The notes under the pieces were generated by a model that saw only the letters and a list, made by a program, of their open reading frames with translations, was not told where the DNA came from and searched no databases. Of a stretch of 64,000 nucleotides of DNA, positions 2,173 to 51,830 are shown in pieces. The position numbers and the translations under genes were made by a program. Source of the DNA: a virus; IMG/VR virus record IMGVR_UViG_3300022602_000001. One strand, given 5' to 3'. Each line of letters starts with the position of its first letter. The stretch's first letter is position 1.

Positions 2173-2667
2173 ATGGCAATATTTGGATCCAGCAGAGACA
2201 TACAGATGTTCAAAGGAATAAGCTACGAGTTCGTTGAGAACGTGGCAAGCCAGCAGTGCGGATACTACAAGGTGGTGCTGTCTGACACCCCGCCGAACGT
2301 CTACGGAGAGGCTGCAGAAAAGCAGTACATAGGCCCTGTTCTTCTCTGGACACTGGTTAAGAGGGGAGACTTTTCCTTTCAGGACTGGAACGACCAGTCT
2401 ACTGACGTTCAGAGGGAGGTGACTTTCAGGTTCTTCAAGGACCACTTAATTAATGCAAACGTGTTTCCTGAGGTTGGAGACATAGTGATGTACAACGAGC
2501 TGTACTTTGAGGTAGACAACGTGAATGAGAACCAACTGATAATGGGAAAGGATCCAAATTACAGCTACTCTAGTGGGCTGAACAATTTTGGATCTTCCTA
2601 CTCAATAATATTAAAAACTCACTACACAAGCCCAGACAGGCTTGGTATCCAAAAACAAAGAGTGTAA
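2173..2667 (+). CDS. Head closure/neck protein (gp14-like)
   Basis: NVYGE and PEVGDIV...YFEV motifs; follows the gp13-like gene. Confidence 0.65.
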   Translation: MAIFGSSRDIQMFKGISYEFVENVASQQCGYYKVVLSDTPPNVYGEAAEKQYIGPVLLWTLVKRGDFSFQDWNDQSTDVQREVTFRFFKDHLINANVFPEVGDIVMYNELYFEVDNVNENQLIMGKDPNYSYSSGLNNFGSSYSIILKTHYTSPDRLGIQKQRV

Positions 2668-2670
2668 CAG

Positions 2671-3951
2671 ATGGCAAGTCAGGTAACAAGGCCACAAAAT
2701 AGACAGGAGTTCATGGACAAGCTGGTCATGCCGTACCTTCCATCTTTGGGAAATCCAAATACAGTTTTTTCTGAACCACAAAAGTTGGGACAGCCTGAAA
2801 TCAATCGAGCGCTAGAGGTCACTCTAAGGAATGACACCAACAAAGACTTTTCAATAGGAATAAAGGACTTCGACGAGGCGCTGAAGTACTACTTTGACAA
2901 CATCTTAAAATTGTCAGTGACCCAGAATGGAACCAGGGTGGACGTCCCCGTTCTGTACGGCAACCAGGAGAACTGGAAGGACATTCAGCTTGAGGGCTAC
3001 CTGAGAGACAAGAATGGAAAGATGATGGCGCCCATGCTGTTCTTCAGAAGGACTGGCATAGAGCAGAACAGAACACTGGGATTCAAGTTGGACGGGAACC
3101 AGGCGCACAATCTGCAGTACTTTGAGGGAAGCTACGACAGACGGAACGTCTACTCAAACTTCAATGTGCTCAATTCAAGAGTACCAACAAAAAAGTACAT
3201 TGTCTCCGTTACTCCAGACTACGTCACCGTCAGCTACTCTTGCATAGTGTGGACCTACTACGTGGAGCAGATGGACAAGCTGGTGGAGTCTTTGAACTTT
3301 GCGGCAAGGAGCTACTGGGGAGACCCAAACAAATTTCTGTTCTACACGGACATTGAGAGCTTCAGCGAGACCCTTCAGTACAACATAGGAACAGACAGAT
3401 CAGTCAGAAACGATTTCACCTTAAAGCTAAACGGGTACCTCATACCAGATTCAATAAATGCAAAGTTGTCCGCTGGAAACAGAGTGTACAGCATAGCAAA
3501 CATATCCTTTGGGCTGGAAACTGCCACCAGCTTTGAGCAGTTCCAGGCGAACTTGGCCAAGCCAAAGTCTTCTCAAATTGCAGCAGTTGCAGCAAACGAC
3601 TCTGTGAACGTGACAAACAACACAACAGTACAGACCGTCTACAGTGGAAGCCTACCAAGCTCTGTGTCAGCTTATCTTCTGCAGACGAAGCAGGTGCAGG
3701 GTACCTACGTGGCTGCAAACACGGTAATATTTGCGGACGGGTGGGCAGTACCACCTTCTGGATACAGCCTTCCGAGCAACACGGTGGCAAACTTCAACTT
3801 TTTTGTCAACTCTACTCTGATAGACCCTGGAGCTGTGGTGAGCTTTGTGGACAACTTGAACAGCACGAGTACACTGACAATAAACACGGGGTCTCTCGGC
3901 TTTGGCTTTGATTCTTCCGACACAATATACGCAATAGGTAAATTCGCATAA
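2671..3951 (+). CDS. Tail terminator/sheath stabiliser (gp15-like) with C-terminal extension
   Basis: VPVLYG..E.W motif; position between neck and tail genes. Confidence 0.55.
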   Translation: MASQVTRPQNRQEFMDKLVMPYLPSLGNPNTVFSEPQKLGQPEINRALEVTLRNDTNKDFSIGIKDFDEALKYYFDNILKLSVTQNGTRVDVPVLYGNQENWKDIQLEGYLRDKNGKMMAPMLFFRRTGIEQNRTLGFKLDGNQAHNLQYFEGSYDRRNVYSNFNVLNSRVPTKKYIVSVTPDYVTVSYSCIVWTYYVEQMDKLVESLNFAARSYWGDPNKFLFYTDIESFSETLQYNIGTDRSVRNDFTLKLNGYLIPDSINAKLSAGNRVYSIANISFGLETATSFEQFQANLAKPKSSQIAAVAANDSVNVTNNTTVQTVYSGSLPSSVSAYLLQTKQVQGTYVAANTVIFADGWAVPPSGYSLPSNTVANFNFFVNSTLIDPGAVVSFVDNLNSTSTLTINTGSLGFGFDSSDTIYAIGKFA

Positions 3952-36557: not shown

Positions 36558-36607
36558 AATTTTAAATTTTTTTGCAGAGCAAATTTCTGTATATTTATTA
36601 GAAACAA

Positions 36608-37138
36608 GGTACTTGGTAGGCCTTAGGTTGCAAAAGAAACACTAACCGTTCACCGCAAGGGAACACAAAACTAAAAAAAAATGACTTACACACTGAGACC
36701 ATTTGAACTGGATCCGTTTGATCTTCTGTGGAAGGACCTGCTGGACACCCAATCCCACTTTTCTTCCATCACGCAAAAAGTAACGCACCCCGTGGACATT
36801 TTTGAGACAAAAAAGGGCATTACCATAGAGGTTGCCGCAGTCGGACTTGAGAAGGACGACATAAACATAATCGTCGAGGGGGACCAACTAAAAATAACCT
36901 ACGAAAAACCAAAGGACGAAGAATCCACCGCCCTGTACAGGGGAATAAAGAGGTCGTCGTTCAATCTGAGCTGGAAGATAGCTTCCAAGTTTGACCTTTC
37001 CAAGCTAACGGCTTCCCTGGACAAGGGGCTGCTAATCCTGTCGATACCAGTCGCAGAGGGCAAAGAGCCAAAGAGAGTTGAGATACACACAGCAAAGCAG
37101 CTGTTAAAGGACTAATTTAAAAGAGCCTGCCAAGTACC
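36608..37138 (+). repeat. 14-nt inverted repeat (one G-U pair) flanking hsp20
   Basis: ggtacttggtaggc at 36608-36621 versus gcctgccaagtacc at 37125-37138. Confidence 0.85.
36681..37115 (+). CDS. Small heat-shock protein (Hsp20/alpha-crystallin)
   Basis: PVDI.ET, EVAAVGL.K.DI, YRGI.RSSF, ASLDKGLL.L.IP motifs. Confidence 0.92.
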   Translation: MTYTLRPFELDPFDLLWKDLLDTQSHFSSITQKVTHPVDIFETKKGITIEVAAVGLEKDDINIIVEGDQLKITYEKPKDEESTALYRGIKRSSFNLSWKIASKFDLSKLTASLDKGLLILSIPVAEGKEPKRVEIHTAKQLLKD

Positions 37139-37143
37139 AAGTT

Positions 37144-37335
37144 ATGTTTTCAATTTCAAAAAATTTCATCAGAGTCAACGACACTCTTTTTCACGTCAAA
37201 AAAACTTTCCTCGAAGAGAGAATAAAGAACGTAGACGCTGCAAAGGAGCTGTTCGGGTGCACGCACGTCTTCAAGAAGGACGAAACGCTTTATTTTACAG
37301 AAGAGGTGCCAGAGGCACAGACAACAACAGAATAA
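37144..37335 (+). CDS. Small hypothetical protein in the chaperone operon
   Basis: aagttATG start; fills the gap between hsp20 and groES. Confidence 0.7.
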   Translation: MFSISKNFIRVNDTLFHVKKTFLEERIKNVDAAKELFGCTHVFKKDETLYFTEEVPEAQTTTE

Positions 37336-37339
37336 ATTT

Positions 37340-37633
37340 ATGAGTAAATTAAATCCAAAGAACGGTTTCGTTGTTTTGAAACCCATCGAGGAGCAGGAGC
37401 AGACCTACGGAAACATAGTGATCCCTGACCTCGGAAAAGAGCGCCCAGAAATGGGGGAGGTAATTGCAACCAGCAGGACCTACAACTGGCACAGGGGAGA
37501 GTTCGTGGAGTCGCAGTTTGAGGTGGGACAGAAGGTCCTGATACCAAAGATGGGCACCATGAAAATATCCATGGAAGGAGAAGAGTATTTTTTAACAAAA
37601 GACACAGAGATACTTTCTGTGGTGGAGAATTAA
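37340..37633 (+). CDS. groES: Co-chaperonin GroES
   Basis: KL.P..G.VVLK, GNIVIPD..KE.P..GEVIA, VGQKVL motifs. Confidence 0.9.
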   Translation: MSKLNPKNGFVVLKPIEEQEQTYGNIVIPDLGKERPEMGEVIATSRTYNWHRGEFVESQFEVGQKVLIPKMGTMKISMEGEEYFLTKDTEILSVVEN

Positions 37634-37637
37634 GACT

Positions 37638-39269
37638 ATGAGCACAACAACAAACGTTAGCGGGACAGAACTCAAGGAGAGGCTGCTTTCAGGAATCAAC
37701 AAGCTGAACCATGCGGTGTCTTCCACTCTTGGGCCAGGGGGAAGAACAGTTCTCATCAGGGAGCAGAGCGGCGAGGTGAAAGTCACAAAGGACGGAGTCT
37801 CTGTTGCAAAGTCATTCCACAAGCTGGAGGACGACATAGAGGACCTTGGAGCAACGCTGGTGAAGCAGGTGAGCATAAAGTCTGCAACCGAAGCGGGCGA
37901 CGGCACAACTACGTCCACTCTGCTGGCCACAAGGATTGTGGAAGAGGGACTGAAGAACATAAGACAGGGCACAAACGCAGTCGAGATAAAGATTGCAATT
38001 GACAAGGGCGTGGACGACGTCATAAAGCAGATAAGGAGCACTGCCAAGGAGGTGTCCTCCGAGGACCAAATAAAGCAAATAGCAACAATATCTGGCAACA
38101 ACGACGAGGAGGTCGGAAGCCTGATAGCAGTCGCAATAGAGAAGGTGGGAAGAGAAGGAGTCGTGACGATAGAAGAGTCAAAGACCGGAGAGACCAGCCT
38201 AGAAATAGTGGAGGGAATGCAGTTCGACAGAGGGTACAAGTCCCCCTTCTTTGTAACAAACAACTCCAGCATGACGGCCGGCCTGGAGAACCCATACGTA
38301 CTGCTGTACGATGGAAGAATATCTACCGCAAAGGACGTCCTTGAGTCTCTAACAAAGGCAAACACTGACAACAGGCCTCTGCTGATAATTTCTGAGGACA
38401 TCGGCGACGAGGCACTGGCCACGCTGATCGTGAACAAGATGAGAGGACTAGTTCAGGTGTGCGCCGTAAGGGCTCCAGACTTTGGGGACAGAAAGACCCT
38501 GATACTCGAGGACATAGCAGTTCTCACAGGGGGCCAAGTCATATCGAAGGACAAAGGCCACAAGCTTGACAAACTCACTCCTCAACAGTTGAGTGGATTC
38601 TTGGGCTCGGCCCGCCTGGCAACCGTGTCAAAAGAGGAGACGACCATAGTAGACGGAAGGGGAGACGAGAGCAAGATTGCTGCCAGGGCCGAAGAGATAA
38701 AGGACCAGATCGACAAGGCCACCTCTTTCTACGAGAAGGAGAAGCTGCAGGAGAGGCTGGGCAAGCTCGTCGGCGGAGTGGCAATAATAAACGTTGGAGG
38801 AAACTCTGACATAGAGATAAGGGAGAAGAAAGACAGGGTGGAGGACGCTCTGTACGCAACAAAGGCCGCCCTTGCGGATGGAATAGTTCCCGGCGGAGGC
38901 GCAGCTCTCTACAGCGCGTGCAGTGCCATTGAGCCGAGCGACTCGGACAGCAGGAGCACTGCAATTGCAAAGGAGGTGCTAAAAAAAGCCCTGCAGTCTC
39001 CGTTCAAGACCATACTCTCTAACGCAGGCGTTGAGAACTGGTACGAGTTCGTTCCAAACGCGGAGGAGGGGACAATATACAACGCAAAGAGCCACAGGAT
39101 GGTGAATGCCCTTGAGGCTGGAATAATAGACCCTGCAAAGGTGGTGATCACGGCCCTGAAGAATGCTGCCTCTGTGGCAGGAACAATTTTGACGACAGAG
39201 TCTGTTGTCTACGAAAAAAAATCAAAGGACGAAAAGGAAGAGCCAAATCCAATGGCTGGACTGATGTAA
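37638..39269 (+). CDS. groEL: Chaperonin GroEL
   Basis: TLGP.GR, TKDGVSVAK, AGDGTTT, EGMQFDRGY.SPFF, GIVPGGG motifs. Confidence 0.97.
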   Translation: MSTTTNVSGTELKERLLSGINKLNHAVSSTLGPGGRTVLIREQSGEVKVTKDGVSVAKSFHKLEDDIEDLGATLVKQVSIKSATEAGDGTTTSTLLATRIVEEGLKNIRQGTNAVEIKIAIDKGVDDVIKQIRSTAKEVSSEDQIKQIATISGNNDEEVGSLIAVAIEKVGREGVVTIEESKTGETSLEIVEGMQFDRGYKSPFFVTNNSSMTAGLENPYVLLYDGRISTAKDVLESLTKANTDNRPLLIISEDIGDEALATLIVNKMRGLVQVCAVRAPDFGDRKTLILEDIAVLTGGQVISKDKGHKLDKLTPQQLSGFLGSARLATVSKEETTIVDGRGDESKIAARAEEIKDQIDKATSFYEKEKLQERLGKLVGGVAIINVGGNSDIEIREKKDRVEDALYATKAALADGIVPGGGAALYSACSAIEPSDSDSRSTAIAKEVLKKALQSPFKTILSNAGVENWYEFVPNAEEGTIYNAKSHRMVNALEAGIIDPAKVVITALKNAASVAGTILTTESVVYEKKSKDEKEEPNPMAGLM

Positions 39270-39279
39270 AATTAAGATT

Positions 39280-40041
39280 ATGAAAAAATACAACACAACG
39301 GACCTGGATCCACAGACAACTTTTGAGCGACACGTGTTCCACAGGGACCAGTTTGCCCACTACCTGAGGTGGACTCACATACTAAAAGAGGCCAACGAGG
39401 GGGACACAATTGTGGACTTTGGGTCAGGCAAGGGAGCGCTGCTGGAGGTTCTGTACAGAAACAGAACCAGGTGCAAGAGCTACACGGGCATAGACATAAG
39501 AAGCAAAACCATCGAGGCAGCCAGCAAAAAGTACGAAATGGTCGAGTGGGCAAAGTTCTATGCGGACGATTTGATATACCCAAAGCTGAACTACGACGAA
39601 TTTCAGGCGGACAGGGTGTGCTCGTTTGAGGTGGCCGAGCACGTGGGCAAGAACAACATACAGACGTTCCTAGCAAACTTCAAGCGCTGTGGCCATTCTG
39701 ACGCAGTCTACTACCTCTCTACGCCCAACTTTGACTCGCAAGTGGGAGCTGCAGGCAACCACACCTACGACTCGGGAGACGGAAGAGGAGTTGCAGTGCA
39801 GGAGTTCGAGCACGAGGAGCTTGCAGCAGAGATCAGGTCGGCAGGGTTTGAGATCGTCAAAAAGTTCGGCACCTTTGCCAGCATAAAGGACTACAAGCAC
39901 CTAATGAACGACTGGCAGACCAGCATGTTCAATGCTCTGAAGGAGTACTACGACGTAAATCTCATATCAAACATAATGGCGCCAATGTTTCCGGAAAACT
40001 CAAGAAACACAATGTGGATTCTGAAGCAGGCAGGCAGCTAG
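39280..40041 (+). CDS. Class I SAM-dependent methyltransferase-like protein
   Basis: VDFGSGKG motif I, GIDI, SFEVAEHV, LSTPN. Confidence 0.85.
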   Translation: MKKYNTTDLDPQTTFERHVFHRDQFAHYLRWTHILKEANEGDTIVDFGSGKGALLEVLYRNRTRCKSYTGIDIRSKTIEAASKKYEMVEWAKFYADDLIYPKLNYDEFQADRVCSFEVAEHVGKNNIQTFLANFKRCGHSDAVYYLSTPNFDSQVGAAGNHTYDSGDGRGVAVQEFEHEELAAEIRSAGFEIVKKFGTFASIKDYKHLMNDWQTSMFNALKEYYDVNLISNIMAPMFPENSRNTMWILKQAGS

Positions 40042-40068
40042 TTCTTTTTGCAGTAAACGCTTTAATTA

Positions 40069-40092
40069 GGTCCCCCAGCAATGGGGGATTTT
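40069..40092 (+). terminator. Intrinsic terminator-like hairpin
   Basis: tccccca-gcaa-tggggga followed by tttt. Confidence 0.7.
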
Positions 40093-40149
40093 ATCTTTAA
40101 CTGCAAAAATTAATTTTACAATACAAAACAATTTTCATACATTGTCCTT

Positions 40150-51410: not shown

Positions 51411-51483
51411 AGCTGGTGGGAGGTAAGGTATCTCGTTGGTCTCATAAGCCAAAATAACCCCGTTCGATTCGGGGACGCAGCAA
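51411..51483 (+). tRNA. tRNA-Met(CAT), initiator-like
   Basis: ttggt-ctCATaa-gccaa; ccccg-ttcgatt-cgggg; mismatched first acceptor pair. Confidence 0.72.
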
Positions 51484-51502: not shown

Positions 51503-51757
51503 AATCTAGAGCAGCAGTACCCATAGGGCAACATTGCGTACCCCTGAATTGACAGGCCGTTTATTGAAACAGATAAGCGTGGTGGGATTTCTACCTGCGA
51601 ATGGCCAGTCGCTACTACTGGTGTCTGAGTGGGTGTAATTAACCTTTCCTCCCGAAGTGGGAGGCTTACTGTACGTGCTGGTACAGACAGGGATAATACC
51701 TTGATGGAAGGAGCCGGTTAATTACCGTATTACCGTAGCAGGCTGCTGCTCTAGATT
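51503..51757 (+). ncRNA. Unidentified 255-nt structured ncRNA
   Basis: Perfect 15-bp terminal stem aatctagagcagcag/ctgctgctctagatt; internal 10-bp stem and multiple hairpins; flanked by tRNAs. Confidence 0.75.
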
Positions 51758-51758
51758 T

Positions 51759-51830
51759 GGCGCCGTAGTTCAAAGGCAGAACATTTGGCTCATATCCAAA
51801 AGGTTGAGATCTCAGAATTCTCCGGCGCCA
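51759..51830 (+). tRNA. tRNA-Met/Ile2(CAT)
   Basis: ggcgccg/cggcgcc acceptor; tttgg-ctCATat-ccaaa; atypical T-loop. Confidence 0.8.

Follow-up and report, generated by a model that had tools for sequence, protein, structure and literature searches.

A covarying long-range pairing between the 5' leader and the 3' flank of hsp20 in a chaperone operon of uncultured phages related to Flavobacterium phages

The analyzed window was a 64,000-nucleotide (nt) stretch of viral DNA (IMG/VR record IMGVR_UViG_3300022602_000001), and the element described here was a long-range helix predicted in the transcript of its gene hsp20, with the 5' arm at 36603 to 36624 and the 3' arm at 37122 to 37143 on the plus strand. 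hsp20 (36681 to 37115, plus strand; Pfam PF00011, E 1e-13; PHROG 432) encoded a 144-amino-acid small heat-shock protein and was followed on the same strand by ORF63 (37144 to 37335; a conserved small protein of 63 amino acids), groES (37340 to 37633; Pfam Cpn10), groEL (37638 to 39269; Pfam Cpn60_TCP1), and a gene for an S-adenosylmethionine (SAM)-dependent methyltransferase (39280 to 40041) as the final gene of the apparent operon; a canonical hairpin-plus-T terminator (40068 to 40098, plus strand) closed this hsp20–ORF63–groES–groEL–methyltransferase unit. A promoter-like motif TATATTTAT (36590 to 36598, plus strand), copies of which stood ahead of ATGs, preceded the 5' arm, and no second promoter-like motif was detected between 36598 and 40068; one promoter motif and one terminator therefore placed hsp20 first in a five-gene operon, of whose cistrons this one alone was bracketed by the helix. 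It is in operons of this kind, read from a single promoter to a single terminator, that gene ratios are set by the stability or processing of mRNA segments. The window had no match among known phages at the DNA level; by protein similarity, the nearest cultured relative was Flavobacterium phage vB_FspM_immuto (54% identity for PolA as well as for GroEL), and the setting is uncultured phages related to Flavobacterium phages.

The core of the 5' arm (36608 to 36621, GGTACTTGGTAGGC) was complementary to the core of the 3' arm (37125 to 37138, GCCTGCCAAGTACC) through 13 Watson-Crick pairs and one G-U pair, the latter being the U-G pair T36617/G37129; an initial annotation of the window had reported these two cores with the same coordinates, sequences, and single G-U, and had correctly placed the end of the 3' core 5 nt before the ATG at 37144. 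A repeat search widened the arms to 36603 to 36621 and 37125 to 37143: beyond a 2-nt A/A mismatch, the outer AAC (36603 to 36605) paired with the outer GTT (37141 to 37143), and the helix reached the base immediately preceding that ATG. Taken alone, the window helix was not beyond chance, with about one such stem expected per 64 kb: two stems of at least 14 base pairs (bp), with at most one G-U and a span of at most 1 kb, were found in the window, compared to 1.03 ± 0.97 in dinucleotide shuffles. Its significance therefore came from its conservation with compensatory change in related loci. When all genes of the window whose flanks could be used were scanned, hsp20 was the sole protein-coding gene with strongly pairing flanks, and the few higher flank-pairing scores belonged only to spurious open reading frames (ORFs) inside a tRNA array (see below). 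No further copies of the arms were present in the window when up to three mismatches were allowed, and Rfam gave only chance-level matches to the element (E values of at least 1.6, far under the gathering scores) and only tRNAs in the whole window.

IMG/VR was searched with Hsp20 and GroES, which gave 129 loci, and one further locus was added from a genome collection; hsp20 with both flanks was available in 114 loci, of which 63 were non-redundant. In all 63, the 5' leader paired with the sequence directly after the hsp20 stop codon. The helix was 14 to 27 bp long (median 20), although only 14 to 17 bp in some clades, and was in most cases interrupted by a single bulge or a small internal loop, and its duplex energy ranged from -21.5 to -36.1 kcal/mol (median -27.8). 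When the full transcripts (541 to 751 nt) were folded, the helix appeared in the minimum-energy structure in 63/63 loci, with a pairing probability of about 1 at 37 °C. More than 20 arm sequence variants were distinguished: the middle of the helix varied (cttgg, ctcgac, ctgtgag, cttag, and cgg, among others), and the 3' arm was altered to match. Four deep lineages (L095, L112, L128, and L131) had wholly unrelated arms, as exemplified by L131, in which GGTTCACAGGCAGAAC paired with GTTCTGCCTGTGAAC.

The compensatory changes were then assessed in an alignment of the whole unit from 62 sequences, with a slide control in which the partner column was moved by one to three positions. In this alignment, 86% of cells were paired, compared to 29 to 45% with the partner slid, and changes on both sides were found at 10 of the 14 core pairs; the number of double-change cells was 101, compared to 19 ± 4 in shuffles, and none of 500 shuffles reached the observed value. 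The initial annotation had proposed that compensatory changes be sought in the flanks of phage hsp20 homologues, and they were present. The pairing was also much stronger between cognate arms, with mean duplex energies of -28.5 kcal/mol for cognate arms, -21.5 kcal/mol for non-cognate arms, and -11.2 kcal/mol for shuffled arms; among eight loci across the deep lineages, cognate arms gave -23 to -34 kcal/mol, while cross-lineage combinations mostly gave -6 to -19 kcal/mol (range -5 to -25). On this comparative evidence, the long-range helix is judged to be real and under selection. Relatives without hsp20 (L096 and Flavobacterium phage immuto) had no arms.

A genome scan for bacterial homologues of the same architecture returned one locus only, on a probable phage contig in a metagenome-assembled genome (MAG), with the helix present. 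In this locus, L131 (positions 2400 to 3000), the Hsp20 relative had 41% identity and the contig had been assigned to a Methanosarcinales MAG; given its sigma-70-like promoters and Shine-Dalgarno sequence, this contig was most likely a mis-binned bacteriophage contig. An extension of the pairing to other phage hsp20 genes was considered and rejected: the hsp20 flanks of cyanophage S-H38 scored -31.8, no improvement on the -30.3 ± 4.0 of shuffles, and this hsp20 belonged to another subfamily and ended in an ordinary terminator.

Two local hairpins accompanied the 5' arm in the leader. The first was formed by the 5' arm itself, in which AAGG (36606 to 36609) paired with CCTT (36621 to 36624) around an 11-nt loop; relatives displayed GAGG/CCTC, GGG/CCC, GAGA/TCTC, TTAAGAT/ATCTTAA, or GGTTC/GAACC at this place, and all four pairs of the stem covaried. 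In the L003 group, the outer stem pair was G-C in the local form, but in the long-range form the corresponding position was only G-U or did not pair, which argues that the local hairpin was selected in its own right. The 3' arm could pair with both strands of the stem of this 5' hairpin as well as with its loop, while a hairpin of the 3' arm itself was found in some loci only. The second, GTTC-A-CC-GCAA-GG-GAAC with a GNRA loop (36648 to 36664, plus strand), had already been noticed in the initial annotation, and compensatory change was found at five of its six pairs. In the L036/L067 clade, the GNRA hairpin was replaced by an ACAC-AGGAG-GTGT hairpin with AGGAG in the loop just ahead of the ATG.

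The placement of the arms relative to transcription signals was compared across the loci. In the window, the motif ATATTTAT stood at 36591 to 36598 ahead of hsp20 and was strongly strand-biased, with 15 copies on the plus strand (including those at 285, 8628, 12781, 24871, 36591, and 57033) and one on the minus strand; its longer form TATATTTAT resembled the Bacteroidetes -7 promoter element, TAnnTTTG. The distance from ATATTTAT to the ATG was 9 to 23 nt everywhere but at hsp20, where it was 82 nt, and the leaders of the other genes were therefore very short; the initial annotation had likewise given 82 nt for hsp20, and 4 to 23 nt for the others. The motif was kept upstream of the 5' arm in related loci: the 5' arm began 0 to 14 nt (median 4) past it, near the presumed transcription start, and the 3' arm began 0 to 21 nt (median 5) past the hsp20 stop codon, ahead of the next promoter where one existed. 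Both arms were therefore placed in one RNA, and their location within the transcription unit in every lineage is a better argument for selection at the RNA level than the type of wobble pairs (see below).

AGTTATG was a frequent start context in this phage (eight of its nine plus-strand copies opened genes), and it was kept after the 3' arm because of this common use; the AGTTAYG element that followed the 5' arm in relatives, present in the window as the degenerate copy AGGTTGC (36625 to 36631, plus strand), resembled this usual start context and was probably kept likewise.

What lay downstream of the 3' arm differed among lineages: (i) in most related loci, ORF63 followed, and in 42 of the 63 loci the distance from the final base pair of the helix to the next ATG was between -3 and +6 nt; (ii) in the L031 clade, ORF63 was absent and the 3' arm stood 22 nt before groES; (iii) in L095, L112, and L128, the 3' arm was followed by a new promoter motif; and (iv) L131, which had sigma-70-like promoters and an hsp20 with a Shine-Dalgarno sequence, likewise had a new promoter after the 3' arm but contained no groESL, and its next ORF was about 660 nt away, with an 18-bp helix kept. 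The helix persisted whatever followed hsp20 and therefore belonged to the hsp20 message of this subfamily, while the predicted covering of the ORF63 start is confined to the window's clade. The claim that the clamp covered the initiation region of the next gene thus held in the window's clade but not as a general function, and such covering cannot explain why the helix was conserved. The ATG at 37144 had been taken to lead into groES–groEL, and its position was right, but it was ORF63 that started there, groES starting at 37340.

ORF63 itself gave no lead in Pfam, PHROG, or Atlas. Most related phages had kept it in its place after hsp20 and before groES, and other small ORFs occupied its place in the L095 clade. 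A further rearrangement was observed in L058 to L060, in which a 193-amino-acid GIY-YIG-type homing-endonuclease gene (L058: 1190 to 1771) lay between the leader and hsp20; the original promoter now served the endonuclease gene, which had also acquired the first 5' arm and GNRA hairpin, and a second copy of the leader stayed with hsp20. The arms in these three loci were 14/14 complementary though 1.15 kb apart.

Among the possible functions, the chief alternative to the preferred reading (see below) was a translational gate, in which the helix would hide the ORF63 start and ORF63, groES, and groEL would be translated only once the clamp opens. The nearness of the next ATG to the last paired base in two-thirds of the loci (see above) suits such a gate; the host group probably initiates translation without Shine-Dalgarno sequences, making start-site structure decisive, and the tight packing of ORF63, groES, and groEL (4-nt gaps) could let a block at ORF63 spread downstream. 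The helix was, however, equally conserved before a new promoter, where no gene was nearby, and where groES stood 22 nt away without ORF63. Moreover, both arms lay outside the translated hsp20 ORF, with 0 to 21 nt between stop codon and arm, so that translation of hsp20 cannot open the helix in a conserved way, which also left the translation-sensitive switch of the initial annotation weak. When the 5' arm was removed, the ORF63 start was predicted to become more accessible, but the gain was modest and variable (from 0.44 to 0.49 in the window), and the gate is unlikely as the function of the element.

A co-transcriptional capture device, in which the loop of the 5' hairpin would seize the emerging 3' untranslated region (UTR) and circularize the hsp20 message, either recycling ribosomes in a closed loop or completing a terminator stem, is improbable; to our knowledge, neither closed-loop ribosome recycling nor a distant 5' half of a terminator stem is known in natural bacterial or phage messages. 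The two outcomes were also weighed separately. As a long-range terminator or attenuator, the 5' arm would supply the upstream half of the terminator stem and yield more hsp20 than groESL message. In L095, L112, and L128, the helix was indeed followed by a T-rich run and the new promoter, with no local terminator hairpin, GTTATGTTTT stood after the helix in many main-clade loci, and display of the 5' arm in a loop would favor quick capture; but the T-run was not conserved (L002, L012, L026, L048, L094, and L131 lacked it), and the helix was weakest next to it. An intrinsic terminator is a local G+C-rich hairpin with a U-tract, while here the arms were about 500 nt apart and the U-run was not conserved. 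The chaperonin genes of the window had no promoter of their own, so that any termination must be inefficient, and the phage used an ordinary local terminator at 40068 to 40098; termination by the helix is accordingly a very doubtful proposition.

For closed-loop translation, the helix would set the stop codon beside the 5' leader, return terminating ribosomes, and raise Hsp20 output. In every lineage, the arms did lie outside the ORF, one near the 5' end and one near the stop codon, and the hsp20 start stayed accessible, but the 5' arm was separated from the ATG by about 60 nt of leader that contained a stable hairpin, and we know of no bacterial precedent, so this explanation is very unlikely.

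At the DNA level, the arms might mark the ends of a mobile hsp20 cassette as terminal inverted repeats, or serve as sites of recombination or inversion. hsp20 was present or absent among related phages with the arms travelling along, the arms flanked the unit precisely, and the strand-specific G-U evidence was weak (see below); against this, there were no other arm copies in the window, the orientation was the same in all loci, and no transposase or recombinase was associated. The arms were fully different between lineages and yet complementary, which points to the pairing itself rather than to a protein site, and they always respected transcription-unit boundaries, making a DNA-level role highly improbable. 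Weakest of all was an RNA thermometer controlling hsp20, scarcely credible even though many bacterial small heat-shock genes are under 5'-UTR thermometers and the hsp20 leader was uniquely long among motif-bearing genes, because the helix excluded the hsp20 start (one arm stood 60 nt ahead of the start and the other past the end of the ORF), the predicted unpaired probability of that start was 0.63 with and 0.64 without the 3' arm (p = 0.43), and the helix was G+C-rich and strong (-21.5 to -36 kcal/mol, median -27.8), unlike known thermometers, all of which spoke against the temperature-sensitive switch of the initial annotation.

With a thermometer, a translation-opened gate, efficient termination, and DNA roles disfavored, what remained in every context was that the helix would influence the fate of its message. 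The tentatively preferred reading is a 5'-UTR/3'-UTR panhandle, which would make the first operon cistron a nuclease-resistant or RNase III-processed unit. The first ~20 nt of the hsp20 transcript would pair with the first ~20 nt past the stop codon, with the leader and ORF (~500 nt) looped between them. The 5' arm would fold first as a short-stemmed hairpin with a loop of 7 to 13 nt, and the 3' arm, once transcribed, would nucleate on this loop and zip to a 14- to 27-bp duplex, which would act on message fate rather than on hsp20 translation or temperature sensing. Both ends of the cistron, locked in double-stranded RNA, would be shielded from 5'-end-dependent and 3'-exonucleolytic decay, and the duplex might offer host RNase III a site at which hsp20 is released from the downstream chaperonin message; RNase III-type processing or excision, as put forward in the initial annotation, is a leading candidate role. 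In the window's clade, the duplex would also bury positions -1 to about -20 of ORF63, and ORF63 with the groES and groEL genes behind it might be translated best from cut or unclamped molecules. Clade-specific gating of ORF63–groESL would then be a secondary consequence of the panhandle, or else its main rival, which seems rather unlikely.

Several points weigh against the panhandle reading. Its effects on decay, cleavage, or translation are wholly inferred. The strand evidence for RNA was weak: a strict count of internal pairs gave 8 G-U and 0 A-C in the sense orientation and 4 G-U and 6 A-C in the antisense orientation, and the difference between sense and antisense duplex energies was not significant (p = 0.10). 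The single G-U of the window, read in the initial annotation as a sign of selection on RNA, was present but by itself constituted weak evidence. A loose count of 69 G-U to 1 A-C was set aside, being inflated by peripheral pairs and by the scoring of the folding program. A classical RNase III site takes about two turns of near-continuous duplex (roughly 20 bp), a length of which the 14- to 17-bp helices of certain clades fell short. A search of two relatives, 95 to 100% complete, gave no phage RNase III gene, while the family was detected in a Bacteroides control genome, and the host enzyme would therefore be needed. In L131, the 5' arm seemed to start about 20 nt past the likely transcription start, so that protection of the extreme 5' end is not universal. 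Finally, the ends would also be shielded by two local hairpins, one at either end, and stability alone leaves the long-range pairing unexplained.

Known systems resembled the element in different respects. The small heat-shock gene thermometers ROSE, Synechocystis hsp17, and ibpA belong to the same gene class and likewise have a long structured leader, but they are weak local hairpins over the Shine-Dalgarno sequence or AUG, while the helix of the phage hsp20 was strong, long-range, and away from the start. The Min Jou interaction of MS2 and the IF3-L35-L20 pseudoknot of Escherichia coli are long-range masks of a downstream start, and in the window's clade a distant sequence similarly paired beside the start codon of the next cistron; however, their upstream arm lies in translated or regulator-bound RNA and the mask can be opened, whereas the hsp20 5' arm was untranslated and the masking clade-specific. 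RNase III stems flank rRNAs, and phage T7 has intercistronic RNase III sites; in these, too, double-stranded stems delimit a functional segment of a longer transcript, but the rRNA stems flank non-coding RNA and the T7 sites are local intergenic hairpins, while the phage hsp20 helix spanned a whole cistron.

Closer in geometry were three messages with end-to-end pairing: (i) in the Bacillus subtilis hbs mRNA, a 14-bp helix between the 5'-UTR and 3'-UTR modulates RNase Y cleavage (Braun, Durand and Condon 2017, PMC5737220); (ii) in Staphylococcus aureus icaR, pairing of the 5'-UTR and 3'-UTR yields a duplex that RNase III can cut (Ruiz de los Mozos et al. 2013, PMC3868564); and (iii) in the hok mRNA of plasmid R1, the tac/fbi stem stabilizes a closed message (reviewed in PMC9841398). 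As would be expected for the phage element under the panhandle reading, the hbs pairing affects endonuclease access and stability and does not mask its own start (PMC5737220), but hbs is a Firmicutes host gene acted on by RNase Y and J1 and has no sequence relation to the phage hsp20 element, which was up to 27 bp long, had its 5' arm in a hairpin loop, and belonged to the first cistron of a phage operon. The icaR pairing hits its own Shine-Dalgarno region and blocks translation, while the phage hsp20 start was untouched. In hok, an end-to-end helix likewise closes the whole message through a stepwise folding pathway and stabilizes the closed form, but this closure silences a toxin until 3' trimming and involves an antisense RNA, and no such partners were seen at the phage hsp20.

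The phage element shared with the class of 5'-UTR/3'-UTR pairings both the compensatory changes and the placement of its arms in the leader and in the 3' untranslated sequence, as counted from a presumed transcription start; by analogy, it is like hbs, icaR, and hok in geometry but homologous to none of them. What sets it apart is that it is carried by a phage, encloses the leading cistron of an operon, presents its 5' arm in a hairpin loop, and leaves the start of its own gene free, and literature searches for a described phage example found nothing relevant. Few bacterial messages are known with pairing of 5' and 3' untranslated sequences, each by experiment on one gene, while the comparative support here was unusually strong (more than 20 variants of the arms in 63 non-redundant loci, with unrelated arms in four lineages) and provided natural compensatory mutants, ready for testing how end-to-end pairing affects the decay and processing of mRNA and the stoichiometry of an operon. 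Translation in the probable hosts, whose RNA biology has been little studied, probably starts without Shine-Dalgarno sequences; in these phages, chaperone modules composed of hsp20 together with groES and groEL would carry a post-transcriptional control of their own.

The second stem of at least 14 bp that qualified in the window (see above) sat in the tRNA array: a 16-bp helix (15 Watson-Crick pairs and one G-U; 51503 to 51518 with 51742 to 51757) closed a non-coding stretch of about 255 nt, flanked by a tRNA-like element (51412 to 51482) and a tRNA (51759 to 51830). The stretch 51503 to 51757 had no Rfam match at the gathering score and may represent a structured RNA of a new type.

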